This document shows, one piece after another, positions 5,369-18,829 of a DNA stretch of 39,188 nucleotides. A program made the translations under genes and the position numbers. The notes under the pieces are model-generated. The model was not told the DNA's origin. It did no database searches and was given only the letters and a program-made list of their open reading frames with translations. The stretch comes from a virus. How positions within the stretch are numbered: position 1 is the first letter of the stretch; each line of letters opens with the position of its first letter. The stretch covers positions 1 through 39,188 of IMG/VR virus record IMGVR_UViG_3300028830_000027, one strand, 5' to 3'.

Positions 5369-5539
5369 ATGACGTACAACGAAGCAGCAGCCTTAATAGG
5401 GAAAGTTCGAGAGATAGAAGTGAACGGGTTAGCGGTCGATGTAATGGTCAACGATGTGAAACAGGCTTACGGCCGTACACGGTACCTTGTCAGCCCTGTA
5501 GCCGGCCGAGGGCAAGTGTGGGTCGAACGGTTGGTATGA
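5369..5539 (+). CDS. Small protein (56 aa), paralog of 6862..7050
   Basis: GAGGAG SD 6 nt upstream. MTYNEAAALIGKV...YGRTRYLVSPVAGRGQVWVERLV aligns with ...YMGKV...FGRPSFLVEPVAGEGQMWLEHV. Confidence 0.65.
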   Translation: MTYNEAAALIGKVREIEVNGLAVDVMVNDVKQAYGRTRYLVSPVAGRGQVWVERLV

Positions 5540-6861: not shown

Positions 6862-7050
6862 ATGCGCGTCGCTGAATTGATGGAATACATGGGGAAAGTA
6901 GGCCTTGTGTACTACGGAGATATGCAGGTAGAGGTACGTGTGAAGGACATTCAGTACAAATTTGGTCGTCCTTCGTTCCTGGTCGAACCCGTTGCAGGTG
7001 AAGGGCAAATGTGGTTAGAGCATGTCATGTTTAAAGGAGATGTGTTATGA
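6862..7050 (+). CDS. Small protein (62 aa), paralog of 5369..5539
   Basis: ATG 6862 with GAGGAGGG upstream, which I prefer to the longer listed ORF starting at 6826. Confidence 0.7.
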   Translation: MRVAELMEYMGKVGLVYYGDMQVEVRVKDIQYKFGRPSFLVEPVAGEGQMWLEHVMFKGDVL

Positions 7051-8284: not shown

Positions 8285-9376
8285 ATGGCGAAAAAGACAG
8301 CATCCACAACAGCAACCGTAGAACCGACCGAACCTGTACCAGCTATCGTGTCAACTGACACATTACTGACCGCACTAACCGTACCACAAGCGGAGACTCC
8401 GCGTGTATGGCCTTGTCTACTGGGACCTACAGGCTGTGGTAAGACGGCGCGTGTCCGTCAACTTGCGGCGACCATGGGGCGGCGACTTGTCAGCCCTCCC
8501 TTGACTCAAGGCCTTCCCGAGGACTTCACCGGACTTCCGCGTGTGACGGCAAGTGGCTATAGCTGGCATTTACCGCCATGGGCCTTACACGCAATCAACG
8601 AACCGACGCTTGTGTTCTTGGACGAAATCGACAAGGCTTGTGAGGACCACCAGAAGATACTCTTGCCCTTGCTTCATGAGCTGGAACTGCATGGAGTCCC
8701 ACTCCACCCGGAGACTACCTTTGTATGCGCCATGAATCAACCCTCGGCCTCATGGCAGCGTACGGAGACAGGAAAGGCGTTGCTCGCACGTGTGGTGGTC
8801 GTCCCCGTGGCACCATCAATTGACTGGCTAAGTGAAAAACATAAGGTTGATTTGTCGGGCGTGTCGTTCAGTTCGACCTGTGATTACACGCCGCAAGCGC
8901 CCTCTATGCGTATGGTTGACTGGTTGCTCGGGTTCTATACGTCGCATAGCCAGCACGCGGACCTGTGTAAGCATGTGGGTGCGTTGGCACTCGGCACGAC
9001 GATCGCGGACAACCTCTATCAACGCTATACGGAAACGTTGCGCCTGTCCCCGCAAAATGTGTGCGAAGCTCTGAATAGCGACGTGGAACTCTTAACCCGT
9101 ATGACTGTACGCGAAGTGGTCAACCTGGCAGCGTCCGCGTGTCGCTGGTGTGAAGGTCCGGCCTACAAAGCAGTCCTCAAAAAAGTGATACTAGAAGGCA
9201 CGGTCGAGGATGGTGAAGAATTCTTCCGTGTCCAAAATGAGTATGTCAGTACCGCCCTGGCTGCGTCGCCAGCAGGTATTAATCTGTTCGGGGACGCGTC
9301 AGAAAGCGACATGATGAAAGCGTTGCGGGAGGCGGCGGAGGATATCGCGGCTGTCTGGCAAGCCGCCTCAAAGTGA
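8285..9376 (+). CDS. MoxR-like AAA+ ATPase
   Basis: Walker A GPTGCGKT, Walker B LVFLDEIDKA, sensor-1-like FVCAMNQ. GAGGAG SD. Confidence 0.8.
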   Translation: MAKKTASTTATVEPTEPVPAIVSTDTLLTALTVPQAETPRVWPCLLGPTGCGKTARVRQLAATMGRRLVSPPLTQGLPEDFTGLPRVTASGYSWHLPPWALHAINEPTLVFLDEIDKACEDHQKILLPLLHELELHGVPLHPETTFVCAMNQPSASWQRTETGKALLARVVVVPVAPSIDWLSEKHKVDLSGVSFSSTCDYTPQAPSMRMVDWLLGFYTSHSQHADLCKHVGALALGTTIADNLYQRYTETLRLSPQNVCEALNSDVELLTRMTVREVVNLAASACRWCEGPAYKAVLKKVILEGTVEDGEEFFRVQNEYVSTALAASPAGINLFGDASESDMMKALREAAEDIAAVWQAASK

Positions 9377-9702
9377 GGGGACACATGTTTGCAAGTCGTT
9401 TAAAATCGAACGTTGTATTTATTTCGGTTGGAATTGGAGTTCGCGTGCCTTTGGTTCCGAGGTGGGTTTGGATTGAAACAACCAAAATTCGACTAATGTC
9501 GTCACAAGGCGACGTTGTACGGCCCATCGCGAGGTGAGGGTAGATATGGTTTATAAAAAATCGAGCACATTTTGGGTTGGTCATCGTGAGTTATTTGTTC
9601 GAGGCCTCTTGGATTCTAGTTATACGTGGATAAGTGTGCTAAACGGTCGTCCGGCATTTGAGTACTATCCTATATCACGACCGACCAAAGAAAGGACCCA
9701 CC

Positions 9703-10776
9703 ATGGAACGTGATTGGGTTGCCTTACGTGACAACATACTCGCGGTGATGGCGTGGGCGAAAATCAAATTTGTGCACACCGCAGAGTACCCTCGGCCTTG
9801 TGTGTACTGGCGTGAAGGCGCGTTCACCATTGACGGCGGGCAAGCCTGGGGCACCTACACGCCCGCTGAACAATACTTTGTCCTCTTACACGAGTACGCG
9901 CATGTGACACGTGGGGACCTGCGTATGAAGAAGGTCGATCATCGACGCTGGAATATCGCCGCCGACGCAGTGATTAACCATAGTTTGCAAGGTCTGACCG
10001 AGGGGGCGTTGTGGGAAACGGTCATAACTTATGACAAGCTCCGGGCACAATACCCCGCATTACCTGTTACAATCCCGACAACCCGCGCGATCTATGAGGT
10101 GTTACAGGAGGACGCCGATCAGAGCCCCGATGACTACACGCCCTGTGGGGGTGACGAGAAAGACGACAAGGCAATCATACAAGCCACTTTTCGGGCAATC
10201 CTCGGCGCGAAGCAGTTACCCGACGGCGCAAAGGTCTGTATAGAAGGCTCTGGGTGGTCCCTGTCGGAAGGTCCGGCCCGTGCCTTAGCGTTGCCTGACG
10301 TTGCAGCGTGTACACAGCTCATGGAAATCCTACGCTTGATCCGTAGTAAACCAGTCGGGTATAAACAAACGCGGTCATATATGCGCGAAGGCCGCGTAGC
10401 GTCGTTACGGGGGGTTCAAAGGGTCCCTCGTCCGTCCGTTGCCGTCGCCTTGGATGTGTCAGGGTCCGTGAGTGACGGAGATATCCAGCGTGCCCGTAAT
10501 ATTGCGGAGTACTTACACGAGAACGGGTACACAGTCCGGTATGTGGTGTGGGCGTCTAGTGCCGCTATCTGGCCTGGGATCGGTCCGTTACCAGCGGTCG
10601 GTTCCACTACCGACATGCGCCCGGCCATTGCGTTGACACAGGACGATGAAGTTGTGGTGTGGTTAAGTGATGGCCTGTGCGCGTCGAACCCGGTCGAAGG
10701 CCAGCGTCATATCTGGGTAGGCCCCGCGAGTATCACGCAGCAACCGGGCGAACACGTCGAATGGGCACGGGGGTGA
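9703..10776 (+). CDS. VWA-domain protein with an N-terminal HExxH metallopeptidase-like domain (DUF2201-type architecture)
   Basis: LLHEYAHVTRGD (HExxH) followed by NIAADAVINH. MIDAS motif ALDVSGSVSD and a late VVVWLSDG. ATG 9703 preferred to TTG 9658. Confidence 0.75.
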   Translation: MERDWVALRDNILAVMAWAKIKFVHTAEYPRPCVYWREGAFTIDGGQAWGTYTPAEQYFVLLHEYAHVTRGDLRMKKVDHRRWNIAADAVINHSLQGLTEGALWETVITYDKLRAQYPALPVTIPTTRAIYEVLQEDADQSPDDYTPCGGDEKDDKAIIQATFRAILGAKQLPDGAKVCIEGSGWSLSEGPARALALPDVAACTQLMEILRLIRSKPVGYKQTRSYMREGRVASLRGVQRVPRPSVAVALDVSGSVSDGDIQRARNIAEYLHENGYTVRYVVWASSAAIWPGIGPLPAVGSTTDMRPAIALTQDDEVVVWLSDGLCASNPVEGQRHIWVGPASITQQPGEHVEWARG

Positions 10777-11076
10777 GATGACATACTTTAAACGGAGTCC
10801 AGCAGTCTCGATAAAACCGTACGGCGTTATCTTAGTTTTTACACGCGTGCAGTCAGGAGCCGTATGTATCAATATGACGTGGACAGTCAGGCCAGACCTA
10901 CGATGAGTGAGAAATGACCTATACAGCGAACCATACAACAACGCGGCTTACAAGCACATTCGTACGGGTACTTACTCGAAGCTGTTATACTAGCTTCATT
11001 TTCGTGTATAGTGTTCAAACGTTTGACCGTTCCGTTCGTCGCCCAAACTGTTAACATTCACCATAAGGAGGTTCCT

Positions 11077-11274
11077 ATGCGTTGCCCACGTTGCCAAGGT
11101 TTACTAGTCCGTGACTCATTCAACAATGTTCGCTTAGAAGACGCGCAGGTACACGCTGCCGTCCGGTGTGTCAACTGCGGGTTCATCGCTGACCAACTCA
11201 TACTCGCGCGATGGCTGAGTTACCGGCAACAAGCGTCCGCCGAGGTGCCTGTATCCGAGGTGTCCCATGCGTAA
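11077..11274 (+). CDS. Zinc-ribbon protein (65 aa)
   Basis: AAGGAGG SD. CPRC...CVNC spaced about 30 aa apart. Overlaps the next gene by 8 nt. Confidence 0.7.
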   Translation: MRCPRCQGLLVRDSFNNVRLEDAQVHAAVRCVNCGFIADQLILARWLSYRQQASAEVPVSEVSHA

Positions 11275-11587
11275 GGGCGCAGTGAGCCGATCGAATACGC
11301 TTGAAGAATGGTACTTGGACGCGTTGGCGTTCTTGTACCAGCGGTATAGGTACGAAAACGATGTGTTCCTTGACGATGTAGCTGGTCGTTTTGCTGTGCG
11401 TGCGACCTGTGCTTGGAAACGCTTTGACCCAAGTAGAGGCAAAGCCTTCACGTTCCTGTGTTGGATTGCGCGTGCGGCCTACAGTGATGCCGTCACGCAC
11501 AGAAAACGGGGCCGTGACCTCATGGGGGGCCTACACCGGGAGCGTATGACAGAGGAGTGGTTACATCAGTGTGTTGGCAGTGAATGA
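11267..11587 (+). CDS. Sigma-70 region-2-like protein lacking region 4 (106 aa)
   Basis: DDVAGRFAVRATCAWKRFDPSRGKAFTFLCWIARAAYSDAVTHRKRGR fits the ECF/sigma-70 region 2 pattern (FDP..G.F..WL..IA.N...D..R..R). Only about 25 aa follow. Confidence 0.6.
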   Translation: MRKGAVSRSNTLEEWYLDALAFLYQRYRYENDVFLDDVAGRFAVRATCAWKRFDPSRGKAFTFLCWIARAAYSDAVTHRKRGRDLMGGLHRERMTEEWLHQCVGSE

Positions 11588-11603
11588 GCCGGAAAGGAAC
11601 CAT

Positions 11604-11768
11604 ATGACGTATAACCCACTCCGTCTTATCATCGCTGTCACAGGCCGTGGTATTTGGTTCGATCCCCCAAGGTATCGACTAGTTATTCACGCAAACGAGG
11701 TGTTAAGTGAATTTCAAAGGACGCCCGTGCGTCGTCCGTGTGACCAGGCGAACGTAGGTGGCACATGA
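11604..11768 (+). CDS. Mini-protein A (54 aa; MTYNPLRLIIAVTGRGIWF...)
   Basis: AAGGA SD. The stop overlaps the next ATG (ATGA). Confidence 0.5.
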   Translation: MTYNPLRLIIAVTGRGIWFDPPRYRLVIHANEVLSEFQRTPVRRPCDQANVGGT

Positions 11769-11920
11769 CCTACCGCTGTTACCATCGTTGGTTTACCCAT
11801 ACTGCGATGTACGTGTCCATCGCGAAAGAAGACGGTTTATATAGTATTGCCTCGTTTAACGTGCGTTATGGGCATAGTCGCTACGCACTTCGGGTTGAGC
11901 CTAAAAAAAGCGTGAGGTGA
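11765..11920 (+). CDS. Mini-protein B (51 aa; MTYRCYHRWF...SIAKEDGLYSI...)
   Basis: ATGA overlap upstream, AGGTGG 3 nt before the ATG. The stop is 1 nt before the next ATG. Confidence 0.45.
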   Translation: MTYRCYHRWFTHTAMYVSIAKEDGLYSIASFNVRYGHSRYALRVEPKKSVR

Positions 11921-11921
11921 T

Positions 11922-12074
11922 ATGAGGTACGCAAGTGGCAGGAGATTAGCAATTGGTTCGCTTGGGGTATTTAGTTATTCATACAACATTTTGGTGACAG
12001 TTACACAGGTGTCTCATGGAAAAGACGGCTACAAGGCACACAAACGCCCGGCACAGGAGGCCGCCTCGAAATGA
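11922..12074 (+). CDS. Mini-protein C (50 aa; MRYASGRRLAIGSLGVFSY...)
   Basis: GAGGTG just upstream. ATGA overlap with mini-protein D. Confidence 0.45.
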   Translation: MRYASGRRLAIGSLGVFSYSYNILVTVTQVSHGKDGYKAHKRPAQEAASK

Positions 12075-12253
12075 CGTACACCACGGAGTATAAGCGTACA
12101 GGGCCTATTATTATAGGCGTTAGTGGTATCTACGTAAACCAACTATGCGATTTATCTAAAACGATATACATATATGCCTGTGGAATGCGTACCTTAATCA
12201 AAGTGGGTCATCAGTATGTTTGGGGACCGAGGGAGGGGGATGATGTTATATAA
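12071..12253 (+). CDS. Mini-protein D (60 aa; MTYTTEYKRTGPIIIGVSGIYV...)
   Basis: AGGAGG 10 nt upstream. Listed in the ORF track. Confidence 0.55.
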   Translation: MTYTTEYKRTGPIIIGVSGIYVNQLCDLSKTIYIYACGMRTLIKVGHQYVWGPREGDDVI

Positions 12254-12419
12254 GTACAATCGACGGGTTTTCATCGGTGTCGCCGGTCTGATAACGTATC
12301 CACAGTCCTGCGCCATCCCCCATTTCGCGTGTAACCGCGTCTGTTTTCACTCGGTACGGTTGGCGGAGGTGGGGCAAATAGAACGGCCTATGTGCGGGCG
12401 AGACCGGAGTAAACGATGA
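12240..12419 (+). CDS. Mini-protein E (59 aa; MMLYKYNRRVFIGVAGLITY...)
   Basis: AGGGAGGGGG directly upstream. Overlaps D by 14 nt. ATGA overlap with F. Confidence 0.55.
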   Translation: MMLYKYNRRVFIGVAGLITYPQSCAIPHFACNRVCFHSVRLAEVGQIERPMCGRDRSKR

Positions 12420-12577
12420 TATACCACATGAAGTCGCCCATTATGACCAGCACCAAGGGCGTACGTGTACTGACCCGAGTGCGCGGTTGTACAGTCCTTC
12501 TTGAGGCTCCTTGTGTGTTTTGTGCTGGAATGTATGTTGTGGTTCGCCCTGGTACTCGGAAAAAGTTTACACCATGA
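12416..12577 (+). CDS. Mini-protein F (53 aa; MIYHMKSP...GCTVLLEAPCVFCAG...)
   Basis: GGAG 6 nt upstream. ATGA overlaps at both ends. Confidence 0.45.
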   Translation: MIYHMKSPIMTSTKGVRVLTRVRGCTVLLEAPCVFCAGMYVVVRPGTRKKFTP

Positions 12578-12765
12578 AATATATACAAGGTTTTATTCAC
12601 CTGGGAGTCGCGGGGGTACACGTGAGGACTGTACCTGGTATGACTAACATGTCGTTCTTGCATAGCGTTGGCGTGCACTATGTACGGATAGGGCGTAATG
12701 GCGAGGTTTTACGCTATACCGGTCGCGACGACTTCGATGGAGACCAAACCCATGACTTATACTAG
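12574..12765 (+). CDS. Mini-protein G (63 aa; MKYIQGFIHLGVAGVHV...)
   Basis: ATGA overlap with F. This is the C-terminal part of the listed ORF 12511..12765. Confidence 0.5.
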   Translation: MKYIQGFIHLGVAGVHVRTVPGMTNMSFLHSVGVHYVRIGRNGEVLRYTGRDDFDGDQTHDLY

Positions 12766-12895
12766 TAAGACCCTCTATATTGACCAAGGCGGGCTGTTTA
12801 CCGCTCACATAAGCGTCAGGGTGCAGCTTGTCAGAAAACGAGAGAGGTACCTGTATCGACCTGACCCAAAGCCGCTTACGTCGCCGCGCTCGTAA
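12752..12895 (+). CDS. Mini-protein H (47 aa; MTYTSKTLYIDQGGLFT...)
   Basis: GGAG 9 nt upstream. Overlaps G by 14 nt. Confidence 0.45.
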   Translation: MTYTSKTLYIDQGGLFTAHISVRVQLVRKRERYLYRPDPKPLTSPRS

Positions 12896-12972
12896 GGTCT
12901 GGTAAAACCCTCAATCCATTATTCCGTGAACCGCGCCGCCAAACAAGCACGCAGGCAACGAGGTAGTAAAAA

Positions 12973-13149
12973 ATGGTCTATACGAATATGTCCGTGCGAA
13001 TTGACAACGACGGGATCTATTTTAACTCAGAGTTAGACGATGTGGCGTGTAGTATAGCTGTAGATATGTCGATCTTTAACGATAATATTGGATGGGCCTA
13101 TCGCCCCGACGCCCTCTCAACCCTTCGCGAGACTATCAAGATCCGGTAA
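12973..13149 (+). CDS. Mini-protein I (58 aa; MVYTNMSVRIDNDGIYF...)
   Basis: GAGGT 8 nt upstream. Its 3' end overlaps the convergent gene 13117..13848 by 33 nt, which lowers confidence. Confidence 0.35.
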   Translation: MVYTNMSVRIDNDGIYFNSELDDVACSIAVDMSIFNDNIGWAYRPDALSTLRETIKIR

Positions 13150-13848
13150 CACCCACAACCCGTTATTCCGAGCACCTCTCAACATGATTTGATCGGCAAA
13201 CCGAGGGATCGTATACAAGTTGTTATCCATGAGGCACCAGATTGTCTCCGCCTTCCCGGTCAAGTAACTCGAACCTCGCGCTAGGTCAATCACGCGAATC
13301 TCTTCCTTATTGGAGATCTTGACGGTGTGATGTATACCGATGACCGCGCTTGAACCGGTGACACCTAGGACCTTATCAAGTACGGTTTTCATTTCGGTGC
13401 TAGATTCTTCCTTTTGCGAGTGAAGTTCGCGCAACACGTCGATGATGATGAGGTCCGGTTTGAGTGTCGAGATAGCGTCTCTGAAGGATCGTTGCACATT
13501 ATCAGCCATGATATTGCACGGGCGAATCTCATCTTCCGGGTGCACGAAATGGATACGATCTTGCAACACAAACCCATTGTTCTTCATGGAGTGCAAGCGG
13601 AGGTTCCAACTATCATCAGCAGCATCGAGGTTCAAGTACAGCACCGAGGATCCAGACTGACACTGACGACCAAGGAAGCGACCACCAGATGCCACCGCAT
13701 TAGCCAACTGTAAGGCGAAGTAACTTTTGCCCGCTTTGGGTTCACCGATCAGGAGCGCGAAGGAACCAGCAGGGAGAAAACCGTCAATTAACCAGGGCTT
13801 CTGTGGTCGTTCCAAGGCCATGTACTCTGTAGCGGATAGCAAGCGCAT
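13117..13848 (-). CDS. RecA-fold ATPase of the RepA/DnaB-C-terminal (AAA_25-like) type; candidate replicative helicase
   Basis: Walker A GEPKAGKS, Walker B DLIIIDVL, followed by IGIHHTVK. TAGGAGA SD. It is the only minus-strand gene inside the plus arm. Confidence 0.75.
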   Translation of the reverse strand: MRLLSATEYMALERPQKPWLIDGFLPAGSFALLIGEPKAGKSYFALQLANAVASGGRFLGRQCQSGSSVLYLNLDAADDSWNLRLHSMKNNGFVLQDRIHFVHPEDEIRPCNIMADNVQRSFRDAISTLKPDLIIIDVLRELHSQKEESSTEMKTVLDKVLGVTGSSAVIGIHHTVKISNKEEIRVIDLARGSSYLTGKAETIWCLMDNNLYTIPRFADQIMLRGARNNGLWVLPDLDSLAKG

Positions 13849-13874
13849 AGTGAGGTCTCCTATGGACTACGGCC

Positions 13875-13884
13875 ATTATACCGT
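13875..13884 (-). promoter_or_regulatory. Promoter-like motif ACGGTATAAT for 13117..13848
   Basis: attataccgt on the plus strand, with the SD and ATG 13848 about 25 nt downstream. Confidence 0.6.
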
Positions 13885-13891
13885 AGTAACC

Positions 13892-13901
13892 ACGGTATAA
13901 T
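13892..13901 (+). promoter_or_regulatory. Promoter-like motif ACGGTATAAT for the nuclease/recombination operon
   Basis: Forms a perfect 10+7+10 palindrome with 13875..13884. ATG 13928 lies 27 nt downstream. Confidence 0.6.
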
Positions 13902-13927
13902 ACAGGCGAAAGGAACGGTGACACGCC

Positions 13928-14734
13928 ATGCCTAAAGTCTATTCGCCTTCCCAGACCGTCATTTTCAGTGAGTGCCCGTTTAAGTGGTATACCCAATGTG
14001 TCCTTCGGTACTCCCATGAGAGCGGTCAGACAGAGCCTCAACGGCTTGGTCAGGCCGTTGCATCCGCTATGGAGCATTTTAACAACGTGTGGAAGGACTC
14101 GGGAGTTAAACCAAGCGGTCCTGACGTGATCGCCGCCGCACTGAGCAAAGCGGAGATCCCTGAGCTTGTGGATAGCCCGGCCTACAATGCGATGCGGAAA
14201 GTGCTGACAAAGCACCTATCCGCTGAGCCGACCCCGGATAGCTGGCTACCTATAGCCGTAGAGACTCCGCGCCCTGACCACGGGCACTGCCGCGCGGATG
14301 TCGTGTACCAGACCCCGAGCGGGCGTGTGGTACGCGACTACAAGTACACCACAAGCTGTGAGTCTCGGTATGTGGTCGGGCGCTTACAGGGGTACGGCGA
14401 CCACCCACAACGGTACCACTACGCGTGGTCAGAGGACGCGGCATTGTTTCAGATCGTACTCATCAGCGGGCAACCCGTCAAAGTGCATGAGCAGGTATGG
14501 AGTTGTGATCCGGCTGACGTGACACGTTGGCTTACGTCACAGCAGGGCAAGTGGGCCGTCATGGAACAGATGGAGCGTGGTGAGATCGCACCGTGGCTCT
14601 CTGACCTCCATAGCACCAAGTACGGCCCGTGTTCTCTGTATGATTGGTGTCAGAATCACAAAGGAGACCACACATTACTTCCGATGCTCGGGTATGTGCA
14701 ACGTCCAAAGTCCGATGCAACCACCTCACTATAA
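13928..14734 (+). CDS. PD-(D/E)XK nuclease (Cas4/RecB-like exonuclease)
   Basis: N-terminal SPSQ..FSECPFKW, a core D...RDYKY (D/ExK) and C-terminal Cys residues (YGPCSLYDWCQNH). Confidence 0.65.
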   Translation: MPKVYSPSQTVIFSECPFKWYTQCVLRYSHESGQTEPQRLGQAVASAMEHFNNVWKDSGVKPSGPDVIAAALSKAEIPELVDSPAYNAMRKVLTKHLSAEPTPDSWLPIAVETPRPDHGHCRADVVYQTPSGRVVRDYKYTTSCESRYVVGRLQGYGDHPQRYHYAWSEDAALFQIVLISGQPVKVHEQVWSCDPADVTRWLTSQQGKWAVMEQMERGEIAPWLSDLHSTKYGPCSLYDWCQNHKGDHTLLPMLGYVQRPKSDATTSL

Positions 14735-14750
14735 AAAAGGAGACCAACGT

Positions 14751-15554
14751 ATGCTCGCACCGTTAGACCTCGCAAATAATGAGTCCGCGTGGGATGCTAT
14801 GAGGGCACGTATCTTGCTCGTGGGCGGCCCTAATACTGGCAAGACCGCGTCGCTTTCTACGTTCTGTCTAGAGGGGGAACGTATGGCGTACATCCAATTA
14901 CCGGGGGAACAAGGCTCCGGTTCATTCCCGGCAAAGGCCCTTGGTGATCGCGTAGTTGTGTTCGTGGATCAGGGGGACGGCGGGGCCTCCAACACGATCG
15001 ACTACGCGAAGGAACTTGCCACCATCAAGACCGTAGTGTTTGACGTGATCGCCGGGAAGTACGGGAAGATTGATGTCATCGCATTAGATGGTCTCCACAA
15101 AGGCTACGATATCTTCCTTGCGAAAGTCACAGGCGGCGTAAGTGCGCGTACCCTGGAGTTTGACGCGAAATTGTACGAGGACGCGCGAAAAGAATTCCTC
15201 GGGTTCCTTCAGATCATTTTCAGAGCGGTAGCAGCAGGGAAGCTGAAACGAGTAGTGGCGACGATATGGGACGGACGCGAAAAGGATGACCCTGACGACA
15301 AGAGCAAGAACGCAGCCTCCCATCTGTTTCCTGAGCTACCCGGCAAGCTCGCCAAAGGGATCGTAGGCGAGTTCGGCGTGGTCCTTGCCACCAAAACGCA
15401 AGGCATGGGGAACGGCATGAAGTACACGTGGCTCACTCGCCCGTTTGGCAAGATCGCAGGTGTCGGTGTCAAGGCTCCGATCGATGTCATGACCTCGGTT
15501 CCAATGGAAGTTGAGCAGTCGTGGGGGAAGCTGTCGGTATTGTTGAACGCTTAA
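14751..15554 (+). CDS. RecA-like P-loop ATPase (AAA_24/Sak4-like recombination protein)
   Basis: AAGGAGA SD before ATG 14751; the listed ORF start at 14577 overlaps the nuclease gene. Walker A GGPNTGKT, Walker B-like VIALDGL. Confidence 0.65.
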   Translation: MLAPLDLANNESAWDAMRARILLVGGPNTGKTASLSTFCLEGERMAYIQLPGEQGSGSFPAKALGDRVVVFVDQGDGGASNTIDYAKELATIKTVVFDVIAGKYGKIDVIALDGLHKGYDIFLAKVTGGVSARTLEFDAKLYEDARKEFLGFLQIIFRAVAAGKLKRVVATIWDGREKDDPDDKSKNAASHLFPELPGKLAKGIVGEFGVVLATKTQGMGNGMKYTWLTRPFGKIAGVGVKAPIDVMTSVPMEVEQSWGKLSVLLNA

Positions 15555-16335: not shown

Positions 16336-17907
16336 ATGCTACAAACCAGACCGAAACCCGCGACATGTGCCGCGTGTCCTGCCGCGAAACTAGGTACACC
16401 TCTTATCACAATCGATCAACAAGACCCTCATGCCGTCGCCACAGTTGTCCATTTCACGCCGGTTGCGATCCATGCGGGTCTTGAGGCGATGTATAAAAAG
16501 CAGGTGGCACCCACTACCGCTGTCAATCATGCGTGTCTCTTAAGGTGTGCGGGTGCGGCGGGACTCAAAGGGACTACTCGAGATGCCGCCGTCCATGCGT
16601 GTCGTCAGTATGACCACTGGACTACCAAGCTTGTCATGATTGCCGGTCGTGACGCCTGGGGGGCGCTCCACGCCTCACACGTCAGGTACACCGATTGGCT
16701 TGGCTACGTGTCCCCGAATGTACTCAACGGGCGTGCCATGCTTGCGACCATCGAAACGCGCGACTTGTATGACACCGACCGCATTGTCGAAGCCCGCGCT
16801 CACCTTCGCCGTGCCCTCTCATGGGTAGCGGGGACTTGGCCCGAGCAACTTCCAGAAAGCACACGGCAGCACACCGCGTTACAAGACCTACACGCCCTGA
16901 TACACGCGGAGCCCTGTACTATCGCGATTGACACGGAGTTTAACTGGTCGAAGGATGCTGTACCCGGCCACCACCCTTTGACCTTGCTTGGCCTTGGATG
17001 GCGTTCACAGACCGGTGTGCATCTCACCCAGTTCACTCCTGATGATGACTGGTCAGTTGTCCTCCCTCTACTCGCCCGTGTCGTCGGTCGCCATACCATA
17101 GTCTTTCAGAATGCAGCGGCGGACGTGCCTGTCATTGCGTTCAATGGTGGACCGGTATGGGAACAATACACGCACGTTGAGGACCTCATGTTGGCACATG
17201 CGACCTTGTACGCCGGGTGGCCGCATGACCTCGGCTACTTGCGGTCGATCGGTGGACACCTCAATATGCCGAAGACCTTCCGAGAAGCACACGAGGGCGG
17301 GGCGGCATCCTTCGCCAAGTACAACGCGGGCGACGTGTATGAGACACTGTGCCTCTGGGAAGACATGAGCCCTCAAGTGTTCAAAGATAAAGGGCTCACA
17401 CACACGTACCACACCCTTGTCAAGTTGGTACCGGTGCACACTCGAGCTACACAACAAGGTGTAGCGGTCTACAAGCCCGCTGTCGTGAAGGCCCTGGATG
17501 AATTACTCGCGGATGTCACGGAGTCCTTGCGTATTGTCGAAGCGTACACGGGTACCCCACTCCCGATGACCGGAAAGCCGTTTGTCACCTGGCTTGTATG
17601 CGTGGAAGGGGTCAAACCTGTGATTCACAAGATAAAAAAGCGTGTCACCTGGGATAAGGACGCGTTGGTAGTATTGCGGTCGCGCTACTTGTCTGTGGAC
17701 GCGGAGTATGAACAACGTAATCCGCTCACGATTGACGCAGTACGTGCCCGTATCGAGCAAGGCGCACACCCCATGTTAGAGGCACGCGCTCTCTATAACC
17801 GGGCGTTCCAGGCCTTCACGCACTATGTCCTGCCGCTTGTAAAAGGAGACTCAAACGATGGCGACGATCAAGACACTGACGGAACTGAAGGCGAGACTGG
17901 ATCGTGA
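16336..17907 (+). CDS. Family-A DNA polymerase, N-terminal ORF: unknown N-domain, 3'-5' exonuclease and thumb
   Basis: Exo I IAIDTEF, Exo II VFQNAAADVPV, Exo III YNAGDVYETL, then helical thumb-like sequence up to ..AFTHYVLPLVKG. Confidence 0.8.
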   Translation: MLQTRPKPATCAACPAAKLGTPLITIDQQDPHAVATVVHFTPVAIHAGLEAMYKKQVAPTTAVNHACLLRCAGAAGLKGTTRDAAVHACRQYDHWTTKLVMIAGRDAWGALHASHVRYTDWLGYVSPNVLNGRAMLATIETRDLYDTDRIVEARAHLRRALSWVAGTWPEQLPESTRQHTALQDLHALIHAEPCTIAIDTEFNWSKDAVPGHHPLTLLGLGWRSQTGVHLTQFTPDDDWSVVLPLLARVVGRHTIVFQNAAADVPVIAFNGGPVWEQYTHVEDLMLAHATLYAGWPHDLGYLRSIGGHLNMPKTFREAHEGGAASFAKYNAGDVYETLCLWEDMSPQVFKDKGLTHTYHTLVKLVPVHTRATQQGVAVYKPAVVKALDELLADVTESLRIVEAYTGTPLPMTGKPFVTWLVCVEGVKPVIHKIKKRVTWDKDALVVLRSRYLSVDAEYEQRNPLTIDAVRARIEQGAHPMLEARALYNRAFQAFTHYVLPLVKGDSNDGDDQDTDGTEGETGS

Positions 17908-18829
17908 CGGTGAGGACTTGTGTAAGGAGGTCGTACACCCGCGCCACGGCACCCACGCCCAGGCCACATTGCGCTGGTCTACGACGGACCCCCCAATGGC
18001 GCAGGTTCCCGGTGCTATGGAAGGTATGTTTGGCCCGGCAGAAGGCTACGGGTTCTTCCGTTACGATTGGGCCGCGTTGCATCTCTGGCTGACGGCAGCG
18101 TACGCTGACGATACCAAACTCCTCACCTTGCTCCGTACGGGGGCCGACCTCCACACGGTCAACTGTTGTGACCTGTTCGGCTTACCGTACCCCGCGAACC
18201 TCGTCAACCCCCACACGTCCCCGGAGTGTGCTGAATGGCGGACACTCGTCAAGTGGGAAAAGAAGGATGACCCTCGGAGAACGTTCGCCAAGCGGTTCCT
18301 GTATCGGGTGCTCAAGGGAGGCGACGTGAACAGCCCACCCGCCGGTATCCCGATGACCTTGTTCGGTGGCTCTGCAACCGGTTTCATCAAGGCTAGTCGT
18401 GCCTGGGCTTTGGCAAACGCGAAGGTCATGCAATGGCAGAACAACGTCAAGGCGCAAGTGCTCCGGGATGGTGCCGTCCGCACGGCCTGGGGTAAGATAC
18501 GCCGGTTCAGTAAGCGAGACGCAAAGGCACAACGGGGCGGGATTGACTTCTTGTGCCAAGGGACGGAAGCGGAGATCTTGAACGAGACGGTACTACTCAC
18601 AACCGCTGCGTTTGACCCGGCCCATGTACGCTTTGTGTACAGCCGCCACGACTGTATCATCTGGGAAGTCGCACACTCGGTGTGGTCCCCAGCGTTCCTC
18701 AAACAGATCGCGGACATTGCAACCCGACCTATCACCATCTATCAACACACGTTCAACCTGGAAGCGTCCTTCCATACACGGTATAATGCTGCTACAAAGA
18801 AACAAGATTGGACTCCCACGCAATCCTAG
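17858..18829 (+). CDS. Family-A DNA polymerase, C-terminal ORF: palm and fingers
   Basis: Own AAAGGAGA SD and ATG. LRWSTTDPPMAQVP (like TGRLSS.PNLQNIP), motif A DWAALHLWL, motif B RTFAKRFLYRVLKGG, motif C SRHDCIIWEV. Confidence 0.85.
   Translation: MATIKTLTELKARLDRDGEDLCKEVVHPRHGTHAQATLRWSTTDPPMAQVPGAMEGMFGPAEGYGFFRYDWAALHLWLTAAYADDTKLLTLLRTGADLHTVNCCDLFGLPYPANLVNPHTSPECAEWRTLVKWEKKDDPRRTFAKRFLYRVLKGGDVNSPPAGIPMTLFGGSATGFIKASRAWALANAKVMQWQNNVKAQVLRDGAVRTAWGKIRRFSKRDAKAQRGGIDFLCQGTEAEILNETVLLTTAAFDPAHVRFVYSRHDCIIWEVAHSVWSPAFLKQIADIATRPITIYQHTFNLEASFHTRYNAATKKQDWTPTQS
18777..18787 (+). promoter_or_regulatory. Promoter-like motif CACGGTATAAT inside the 3' end of the polymerase ORF
   Basis: TATAAT at 18782-18787, 55 nt before ATG 18842. 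Confidence 0.5.

Follow-up and report, generated by a model that had tools for sequence, protein, structure and literature searches.

The window examined here, that is, the whole stretch of 39,188 bp, is the complete contig of a podovirus-like phage (IMG/VR record IMGVR_UViG_3300028830_000027), and at positions 11604-13149 it carries nine consecutive short open reading frames (ORFs) whose predicted products, together with those of four nearby copies, form what comparison shows to be one loose family of proteins of 42-63 amino acids (aa). The favored reading, held at a probability of roughly 55%, is that these ORFs are real, coupled genes of a single lineage-restricted family, that a few anchor residues in their products are constrained while the copies themselves undergo birth-and-death evolution, and that the products would serve as accessory host-interaction proteins in takeover or anti-defence. 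In total, about 5% of the 39-kb genome (13 genes, 2.1 kb) consists of one family that no library recognises.

The nine plus-strand ORFs (47-63 aa), all of which begin M-x-Y (Met, any residue, Tyr), lie exactly where an earlier sequence-only reading of the window had placed them:

11604-11768, plus strand: ORF1, 54 aa, start MTY, MTYNPLRLIIAVTGRGIWF..PVRRPCDQANVGGT, present only in the window-type array
11765-11920, plus strand: ORF2, 51 aa, MTYRCYHRWF..SIAKEDGLYSIASF..LRVEPKKSVR, ATGA overlap with ORF1
11922-12074, plus strand: ORF3, 50 aa, start MRY, MRYASGRRLAIGSLGVFSY..AHKRPAQEAASK, Shine-Dalgarno (SD) sequence GAGGTGAT
12071-12253, plus strand: ORF4, 60 aa, start MTY, MTYTTEYKRTGPIIIGVSGIYV..YVWGPREGDDVI
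12243-12419, plus strand: ORF5, 58 aa, start MLY, MLYKYNRRVFIGVAGLITY..QIERPMCGRDRSKR, SD GAGGGAGGGGG, with an extra ATG at 12240
12416-12577, plus strand: ORF6, 53 aa, start MIY, MIYHMKSPIMTSTKGVRVL..MYVVVRPGTRKKFTP, ATGA overlap
12574-12765, plus strand: ORF7, 63 aa, start MKY, MKYIQGFIHLGVAGVHV..VLRYTGRDDFDGDQTHDLY, ATGA overlap
12752-12895, plus strand: ORF8, 47 aa, start MTY, MTYTSKTLYIDQGGLF..RYLYRPDPKPLTSPRS, 14-nt overlap with ORF7, a clear paralogue of ORF9
12973-13149, plus strand: ORF9, 58 aa, start MVY, MVYTNMSVRIDNDGIYF..GWAYRPDALSTLRETIKIR, its 3' end overlapping the convergent AAA_25 gene by 33 nt

The chained junctions described for these ORFs are likewise found as claimed: ATGA overlaps occur at 11765, 12071, 12416 and 12574, a 1-nt gap at 11921, an 11-nt overlap at 12243 and a 14-nt overlap at 12752, and a gap of 77 nt precedes ORF9. 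Outside the array, the sequence-only reading had proposed a tenth member at 9385-9537, which does have the Gly motif and the terminal Arg-Pro of the family (both described below) but starts MFA; three further members had escaped it. The 13 copies thus occupy three slots, namely two between the genes for a MoxR-type ATPase and a VWA/DUF2201 protein, two after the latter gene, and nine after a gene for a sigma-like protein. The four copies outside the array are as follows:

9385-9537, plus strand: family copy in the MoxR/VWA slot, MFASRL..VVFISVGIGVRV..DVVRPIAR, with the Gly hairpin motif and Arg-Pro, without Tyr3
9546-9713, plus strand: family copy in the same slot, 55 aa, MVYKKSS..YYPISRPTKERTHHGT, with SD-like GGTGAGGG upstream
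10778-10906, plus strand: family copy after VWA, 42 aa, MTYFKR..TWTVRPDLR
10914-11054, plus strand: family copy after VWA, 46 aa, MTYTAN..SVRRPNC

Initial support for the coding status of the array comes from the window itself. Nine ATG-initiated ORFs, each 47 aa or longer, tile 95% of 11604-13149, as compared with a mean of 21 ± 14%, a maximum of 72% and no more than six ORFs in 2000 dinucleotide shuffles. A strict SD-like motif is found upstream of 10 of the 13 family starts and of 18.6% of other ATGs, in agreement with the earlier remark that an SD-like tract precedes most of the ORFs. Of the 132 other ATG-ORFs in the window that are 40-100 aa long, 3 (2.3%) have Tyr at residue 3, and the pattern ATGNNNTAY occurs nine times in the 1.5-kb array, 30 times on the whole plus strand and 10 times on the minus strand. 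The stretch had been described as AT-richer, and its GC content is indeed approximately 0.50 against approximately 0.54-0.57 in the flanks. Finally, these ORFs are called by gene callers in several public sources.

Further support can be found in some 40 metagenomic contigs of the same phage group, identified by exact-protein look-ups and compared with the window. One relative, L030, is 83.6% identical to the window at the nucleotide level over 11907-12936, and the indels that fall inside ORFs measure 9 and 3 nt. The sole 1-nt and 2-nt indels lie upstream of the ORF3 SD and exactly at the junction of the ORF3 stop with the ORF4 start, where the indel shifts the relative frame of both genes and damages neither. 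Frame conservation in relatives, which the sequence-only reading had named as a check, is observed, in-ORF indels being multiples of three and the two others falling at or next to gene borders. At 16% divergence ORF3-8 all remain open (P = 0.002 under random substitution with the observed number and spectrum), and a survey of orthologues made independently of the M-x-Y filter finds the frames open in nearly all lineages. Orthologues of ORF4 and ORF5 differ by indels of 3, 6 or 9 nt, those of ORF4 reading VWRPMEG and in some cases starting with GTG. Among the outlying copies, the 10914-type gene is open and exactly 46 aa long at 11 of 11 matched loci, its aligned parts being free of indels, while the 9385 copy has an open orthologue in L025 that keeps the RP and is called as a 50-aa gene in L012. 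Paired 1-nt indels in ORF7, revealed by BLAST against L024 and L028, are consistent with a local change of frame. Taken together, tiling, SD sites and frame retention establish the nine ORFs, at the level of sequence comparison, as real, SD-led and translationally coupled protein genes.

These data bear directly on the proposal that the stretch holds no genes at all and consists instead of chance ORFs in a spacer, a structured RNA or origin, an antisense gene, or the target of a diversity-generating retroelement. Chance falls far short of accounting for the ORF tiling, the SD sites, the in-frame indels or the retention of open frames. A structured RNA finds no support in folding energies, which are no better than those of shuffles (z = +0.14 and +1.73), and scans of the window for tRNA genes, Rfam families and tandem repeats returned 0 matches each. 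An antisense gene is suggested by a 96-aa GTG-initiated ORF on the minus strand (12388-12678), which lies over ORF6 and ORF7 and is open at the same length in L030; because this ORF is without an SD and 26% of its residues differ, it is probably a product of chance. Substitutions that come in patches could be read as the mark of a retroelement, but no template/variable repeat pair is present in 9300-13300, and no reverse transcriptase was seen among the 20 long ORFs scanned; the few substitutions listed between the window and the L012 group (L012-L022) are of mixed types. Integron-type or other site-specific cassettes were also considered, and only scattered inverted pairs of 14-21 nt were found, none of them at ORF borders. 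No long DNA repeat is shared between family copies, and the mapping of a unit deletion to the Arg-Pro codons (see below) points to homology-driven exchange. Even with a composition resembling non-coding DNA and a ratio of nonsynonymous to synonymous changes (pN/pS) near 1 on its side, the proposal that these are not genes is exceedingly improbable and may be considered already effectively refuted.

M1, Y3 and two further columns, one of Gly and one of Arg, recur in alignments of 24, 66 and 32 members, the Arg column being conserved in at least 90% of the 66 sequences. The shared plan begins with M-x-Y (occasionally Phe, as in ORF6 of L025), followed by 3-10 variable residues, a hydrophobic strand, a turn of the form G-[VIL]-usually aromatic and a second strand; thereafter come one or two more strand pairs, hydrophobic-x-Arg-Pro (R-P), and a short, disposable and mostly charged tail. 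The sequence-only reading had distinguished two motif families, hhhGVxGhxh and IDxxGG[LI][YF] (h, hydrophobic), which fall on one Gly column and thus merge into a single loose family, and it had singled out one ORF as Cys-rich, whereas orthologues of ORF5 and ORF6 do not retain the Cys residues. It also missed a second anchor, x-R-P, located 36-49 residues from Met1 and present in the window in the forms VRRP, HKRP, IERP, VVRP, LYRP, AYRP, ISRP, TVRP, VRRP and VVRP. In the window, Y3 is found in 12 of 13 copies and R-P in 10 of 13, R-P being present as well in orthologues of ORF4 and ORF7; as several ORF7 orthologues end ..RRRPN(L/P), the ORF7 of the window has evidently lost this anchor. The corresponding figure for R-P within the last 22 residues of control ORFs is 15%. 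Ten copies were tested for the Gly motif, a hydrophobic strand followed by G-[VIL]-h at about residues 12-25; it scored in 8 of them and is recognised by eye in ORF5, ORF8 and the 9385 copy also.

Similarity among the members extends beyond the shared start. In a leave-cluster-out test with hidden Markov models, performed after M-x-Y had been stripped, the median of 15 of 16 left-out clusters lay above the control median, and Fisher combination of the listed fractions gives approximately 2e-7 against control ORFs and approximately 3e-5 against shuffles. The similarity is weak for each cluster but real overall, and it exceeds that in shuffled sequences. Across relatives, such ORFs fall into approximately 16-25 sequence clusters, depending on the BLAST threshold. 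The earlier suggestion of old duplications holds as well: the copies are diverged paralogues in which both TAT and TAC serve for Tyr and the codons for the Arg and the Pro of R-P differ from copy to copy. The use of several Arg and Pro codons and of both Tyr codons suggests that selection acts on residues, and the restriction of DNA similarity between paralogues to some 15-25 nt around the start codon (ATGACNTAYAC) suggests that the duplications are old relative to the rate of change.

That the family had gone unrecognised in the sequence-only reading is matched by the searches, in which no match was found in Pfam, PHROGs, NCBIfam, PADLOC or PDB: the first four returned nothing meaningful for 24 members, and a PDB sequence-profile search gave 0 matches at E ≤ 10. 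Structure prediction with AlphaFold2 (AF2) yields an all-beta model with six strands for ORF9 (predicted local distance difference test, pLDDT, 68; predicted template modelling score, pTM, 0.39) and two hairpins for ORF7 (pLDDT 58), from which the family proteins are predicted, with low confidence, to be all-beta. Foldseek comparison of the models gave best values of E = 2 in PDB and E = 0.5 in BFVD, neither of which constitutes a match.

The selective regime acting upon these genes differs sharply from that of their neighbors. Between the window and L030, pN/pS is 0.88 for ORF3-8 pooled and 0.87 for the 10914 copy, and reaches 1.46 for the 9546 copy, which is yet open at the same length, as compared with 0.14 for the VWA gene, 0.14 for a Zn-ribbon gene and 0.05 for the sigma-like gene; the AAA_25 protein is 97-100% identical between relatives at approximately 90% DNA identity. 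The number of residues replaced (133) equals the neutral expectation (136 ± 6), but the changes are somewhat milder than random ones would be (mean BLOSUM62 -0.32 vs. -0.67 ± 0.14, p = 0.006). It had been proposed that the peptides are kept at the protein level. This is borne out for the frames, the few anchors and the hydrophobic pattern and fails for most residues, for which pN/pS is approximately 0.9 rather than 0.05-0.14. Judged from these comparisons, constraint rests on the anchors and the alternating hydrophobic pattern only, the remainder changing at a near neutral rate while the frames are kept open. Firm selection of frames and of a few anchors while the rest changes almost freely is a combination that has rarely been documented, and one for which dN/dS alone would wrongly dismiss the genes.

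Several observations weigh against the favored reading. The GC contents at codon positions 1, 2 and 3 are flat (0.48/0.45/0.49, as opposed to 0.59/0.46/0.63 in long genes) and resemble those of non-coding DNA; ATA, TTA and AGG are over-used; and the amino acid composition is likewise non-coding-like, with Arg and Cys high and Ala low (relative to long genes, Tyr stands at 2.5 times, Arg at 1.9 times and Ala at 0.47 times). The substitutions in ORF3-8 are spread 58:47:50 over codon positions 1, 2 and 3, an even distribution which suggests that most of each sequence may carry no function. Moreover, the R-P and Gly motifs were defined after the sequences had been inspected, the structure models are of low confidence and match nothing, and a UA at +7/+8 followed by a stop-avoiding C/T wobble would mimic Tyr3, such that a cause at the level of RNA or translation could lie behind this anchor. 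Lastly, the idea of a clasp or handle and the host-interaction role, both set out below, are inferred.

Many of these same points are equally at home in the main rival explanation, according to which the ORFs are accessory DNA kept open for ribosome traffic (for example, against Rho-dependent polarity or transcript decay) and encode nearly functionless peptides. A pN/pS of approximately 0.9 with substitutions even over codon positions, the flat GC profile, over-used rare codons, a composition like that of out-of-frame ORFs, and the gain, loss, frameshifting and truncation of copies all fit such an origin. On this view M-x-Y would be a signal of the translational ramp and not a feature of the protein; in E. 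coli, protein yield does rise, via early elongation, when K/N/Y/I residues stand at positions 3-5, and MVYKQ was among the tested starts (PMC6920384). Two unrelated small genes, at 5369 of the window and 1270 of L034, also start MTY; the long genes of this phage, on the other hand, do not use M-x-Y. The array, moreover, abuts a convergent gene, with no downstream plus-strand gene to protect or couple; Arg-Pro is kept 36-49 residues into the protein with differing codons, something that selection on translation by itself would not bring about; the replacements lean towards conservative ones; the 10914-type gene holds to 46 aa at all 11 matched loci; and a near-identical array beside diverged flanks (described below) suggests selection or recent spread. 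Selection for translation only is accordingly a possibility to be taken seriously but a tentative one, and the same tentative standing is given to a ramp function of M-x-Y. Were it correct, the locus would provide a clean case of selection on translation and not on its product, and possibly a Tyr3 ramp signal outside E. coli.

Comparison among relatives reveals extensive turnover of family copies. In the L002 group (L002, L003, L005 and others), the same flanks and ORF9 are retained and four or five other mini-ORFs (MIFVRGRQ.., MKYAPNVP.., MRYTGNEC.., MLYKNTKF.., MRLIMARH..) replace ORF1-8, with homology breaking at 11607, the ATG of ORF1, and at 12884. Three features mark the right side of this variable slot:

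12884-12972, plus strand: right border of the variable slot, the 3' remnant of an 80-aa L002-type gene (..SGKTLNPLFREPRRQTSTQATR*)
12894-12932: left copy of a direct repeat (39 nt, 79% identical) that brackets ORF9
13138-13176: right copy of the direct repeat, inside the 3' end of the AAA_25 gene

In the L012 group ORF1-8 are present and ORF9 is missing exactly between both copies of the 39-nt repeat; since relatives without ORF9 have a single repeat copy, recombination at the repeat has added or removed ORF9. The sigma gene of the L012 group differs from that of the window by approximately 10%, mostly at every third base, and positions 11570-12687 differ at just six clustered sites. A near-identical array beside a sigma gene diverged to this extent points to recent lateral spread of the array. 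Two patches of substitutions separate the same arrays, at 11798-11840 (6 in 43 nt) and 12688-12807 (15 in 120 nt), with nearly every substitution changing an amino acid; both look like short gene-conversion tracts derived from other alleles.

Individual copies are remodelled as well. A deletion of 164 nt in the window relative to L012 fuses the R-P codons of two neighboring paralogues and thereby creates the tail of the 10778 copy; the chimera P0051, found on 72 contigs, joins an ORF2-type N-terminal half to an ORF7-type C-terminal half at a shared ..HSI.. position; and P0054 is an internal duplication. Family copies also continue to decay: ORF3 carries a premature stop in L024, which implies that copies occasionally decay, two other members have frameshifted tails, and three orthologues carry L, C or F in place of Tyr3. 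Frameshifted copies were noted in L002 (7895-8062), L030 (1323) and L039 (3272), where the C-terminal half is wholly different or YRP is read as IQTR. Collectively, unit deletion, chimeras, internal duplication, decay and cassette swaps between co-circulating phages make the case, on genomic comparison, for birth-and-death evolution, while variable presence, the replacement of entire cassettes and the occurrence of a near-identical array in diverged lineages mark the genes as accessory in their behavior.

The family is confined to one lineage as far as it has been traced. HMMER searches over 1.84 billion representative proteins recovered this phage lineage and three repeat-protein false positives only, and a word-indexed profile search of 5.8 billion proteins likewise recovered only this lineage and false positives. 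At the nucleotide level, blastn of 9000-15000 against GenBank phages gave no match, IMG/VR scans with the AAA_25, sigma, DNA polymerase and MoxR sequences found no relatives, and a single metagenome scan found only seven close loci. In L042, whose AAA_25 protein is 67% identical, synteny is kept and approximately four family-like ORFs are present (for example, MIFNRSTCPIHVFDGGIAVY..SYILRPYIHTKGGR and MIYTGKESVYIWDDGISY...); in L044, whose AAA_25 protein is 48% identical, no family members could be recognised. The presence of copies in the former and their absence from the latter suggest that the family arose, or became recognisable, within a sub-lineage and expanded in the clade of the window. 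Positions 1-492 of L042 (JGI 3300056589, Ga0499950_0000495) encode an autoinducer-synthase-like protein (LuxI-type, PF00765) beside the replication genes; as a putative phage-borne quorum-sensing gene, it hints at a proteobacterial host. A scan of genomes for the host gave none.

What, then, might the family do? The favored reading, that its members are accessory host-interaction proteins, draws on three considerations. Firstly, anchors far from the start are selected at the residue level, with length and beta pattern kept. Secondly, the slot behaves as an accessory hotspot with recent spread. Thirdly, the same position in T7-like genomes holds, as a matter of general knowledge, single-target host inhibitors. 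Mechanistically, Tyr3 and Arg-Pro could be a structural clasp holding a minimal beta-sheet closed, or else a recognition handle common to all members, and each paralogue would owe its particular host target to the strand faces and loops, which vary freely. If the products are effectors, they would represent a new scaffold for host takeover or anti-defence, and the rule M-x-Y ... G ... R-P in SD-led ORFs of 40-60 codons would offer a simple search for analogous hidden phage families. A bolder variant, rather doubtful though worth stating, views the locus as a natural, recombination-driven library of minimal beta-sheet binders in which the host factor or defence neutralised differs from paralogue to paralogue. 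The fixed Tyr3/Gly/Arg-Pro framework would hold the fold or dock to a common partner, and drift, gene conversion, unequal crossing-over and exchange of cassettes would diversify the free faces. Because the sequences still resemble non-coding DNA, such a library would, if real, also be one of the few places where very young genes can be seen arising and disappearing within a phage genome.

The genomic setting of the array provides a basis for two additional proposals. On the plus strand the order is MoxR, VWA/DUF2201, Zn-ribbon, sigma-like and then the mini-ORF stretch, after which no plus-strand gene follows:

8285-9376, plus strand: MoxR-type AAA+ ATPase
9658-10776, plus strand: VWA/DUF2201 protein, a putative metallopeptidase
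11077-11274, plus strand: Zn-ribbon protein MRCPRCQG.., 65 aa as called in relatives, a conserved core gene in the same plus-strand block
11267-11587, plus strand: sigma-like 106-aa protein comprising sigma-70 region 2 only, directly 5' of the array
13117-13848, minus strand: AAA_25 (RecA/DnaB-like ATPase) core gene, convergent, closing the array

Beyond AAA_25 lie genes for a PD-(D/E)XK nuclease, AAA_24 and DNA polymerase, and the minus strand encodes a T7-type portal, major head protein, tail tube protein and internal virion protein. The portal is at best 33-35% identical to those of cultured phages, Pelagibacter podophages being nearest. A scan for promoter- and terminator-like sites gave results at background level; as the copies sit in the same plus-strand block and no such signal rises above chance, they probably share a transcript with the MoxR/VWA, Zn-ribbon and sigma-like genes. 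The Zn-ribbon and sigma-like genes overlap by 8 nt, and pN/pS values of 0.14 and 0.05 show strong purifying selection on both. As the long ORFs scanned include no recognisable phage RNA polymerase, redirection of host transcription is a possible role for this pair.

Elsewhere in the genome, the family A DNA polymerase is apparently split into overlapping ORFs at 16336-17907 (523 aa) and 17858-18829 (323 aa), a split that is called likewise in relatives. Paralogous proteins of 56-62 aa are encoded at 5369-5539 (MTYNEAAALIGKV..) and approximately 6862-7050 (MRVAELMEYMGKV..) and are well conserved between relatives; one of the pair starts MTY, is without the other family features, and looks to belong to a separate, ordinary family of small proteins. 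In L002 a 123-aa HNH endonuclease gene is called at 1814-2185 among the early small genes.

The first of the two proposals is that the mini-proteins are clients or adaptors of the MoxR-type ATPase and the VWA/DUF2201 protein, with Tyr3 and Arg-Pro as the handle that is recognised. All three slots lie within or adjoin the MoxR - VWA - Zn-ribbon - sigma block, MoxR and VWA/DUF2201 are core genes of this podovirus group, and L042 combines the same synteny with family-like copies at 67% identity. The proposal draws on gene position alone, however; L044 keeps the MoxR/VWA synteny without recognisable members, and the MoxR protein, for which tblastn found no match in approximately 50,000 GenBank phage records, is without a comparable counterpart in cultured phages. 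A client role is therefore held to be unlikely.

The second proposal likens the family to T7 Gp2, a transcription inhibitor that attaches to the beta' jaw of the host RNA polymerase: the mini-proteins would be small, beta-rich inhibitors that present an Arg-containing strand to the host polymerase, with the sigma-like factor redirecting transcription. The position of the array resembles that of gene 2 in T7-like genomes, before the replication genes, and the proteins are of similar size; the phage also combines T7-like structural genes and a sigma-like gene with a lack of any phage RNA polymerase among the long ORFs scanned. The end of ORF1, ..PVRRPCDQ.., even recalls that of T7 Gp2, ..EVTRVRPCVAPK (..TRVRPCVAPK). 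This shared V-R-P-C does not survive a profile test, in which hhalign comparison of a 66-sequence family profile with T7 Gp2 (64 aa, ..FEVTRVRPCVAPK) gave a probability of 0.2% over one aligned column. Given also that the PDB-wide profile search was empty at E ≤ 10 and that 13 paralogues for one target would be hard to explain, inhibition of the Gp2 type is considered very unlikely.

Literature searches for comparable arrays returned nothing useful, and the closest likenesses are to systems that share some features of the family. The internal protein (IP) locus of T4-like phages is reportedly hyperplastic, in that very different small ORFs swap with one another while a short N-terminal signature is kept, and the signature is said to be a capsid-targeting sequence of about 10 residues that ends at a prohead-protease site. 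Both loci therefore have small ORFs that replace one another under a shared N-terminal signature. Here, by contrast, only M1 and Y3 are conserved and residues 4-10 vary, a second anchor (R-P) lies near the C-terminus, and the array sits among replication genes. Proteins of the T4 internal type were rejected as candidates on the finding that the family alignments contain no conserved leader of about 10 residues.

A structural analogy, and that only, is offered by the WW domain, an antiparallel beta domain of approximately 40 residues in which an N-terminal aromatic and a C-terminal Pro pack together and close the sheet, with a Gly in the first turn. More strands are predicted by AF2 for the present family, 24 members gave no match to PF00397 or any other relevant Pfam entry at E ≤ 1, and no WW domain appears in the Foldseek lists. 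Precursors of ribosomally synthesised and post-translationally modified peptides (RiPPs), such as the prochlorosins, and other libraries that pair a handle with a hypervariable body resemble the array in comprising many short paralogous ORFs with few invariant positions. They differ in that here no long conserved leader is present, Cys, Ser and Thr patterns are not conserved, and a beta-sheet fold is predicted. A RiPP precursor array was rejected for want of a conserved leader and of any recognisable modifying enzyme among the flanking genes scanned (MoxR, VWA/DUF2201, Zn ribbon, the sigma region 2 protein, AAA_25 and the PD-(D/E)XK nuclease).

The nearest comparison is with the class I and II accessory genes of T7-like phages (0.4, 1.1, 1.2, 1.4-1.8, 2, 5.5, 5.7 and 5.9). 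As in those phages, SD-led genes of 30-90 codons are packed in overlapping runs that lie before or among the replication genes, within a podovirus genome of approximately 39 kb that carries T7-type portal, capsid, tail-tube and internal-virion genes. Several small T7 accessory proteins are single-target host inhibitors. The T7 accessory genes are mutually unrelated, whereas the 13 copies described here share one architecture and evolve by birth and death, in a phage whose portal is only 33-35% identical to those of cultured phages and which has a sigma-like gene and, among the long ORFs scanned, no visible RNA polymerase of its own. Taken together, these comparisons place a new, lineage-restricted family with an unusual evolutionary regime in a familiar type of locus, that of the small accessory genes of podoviruses.

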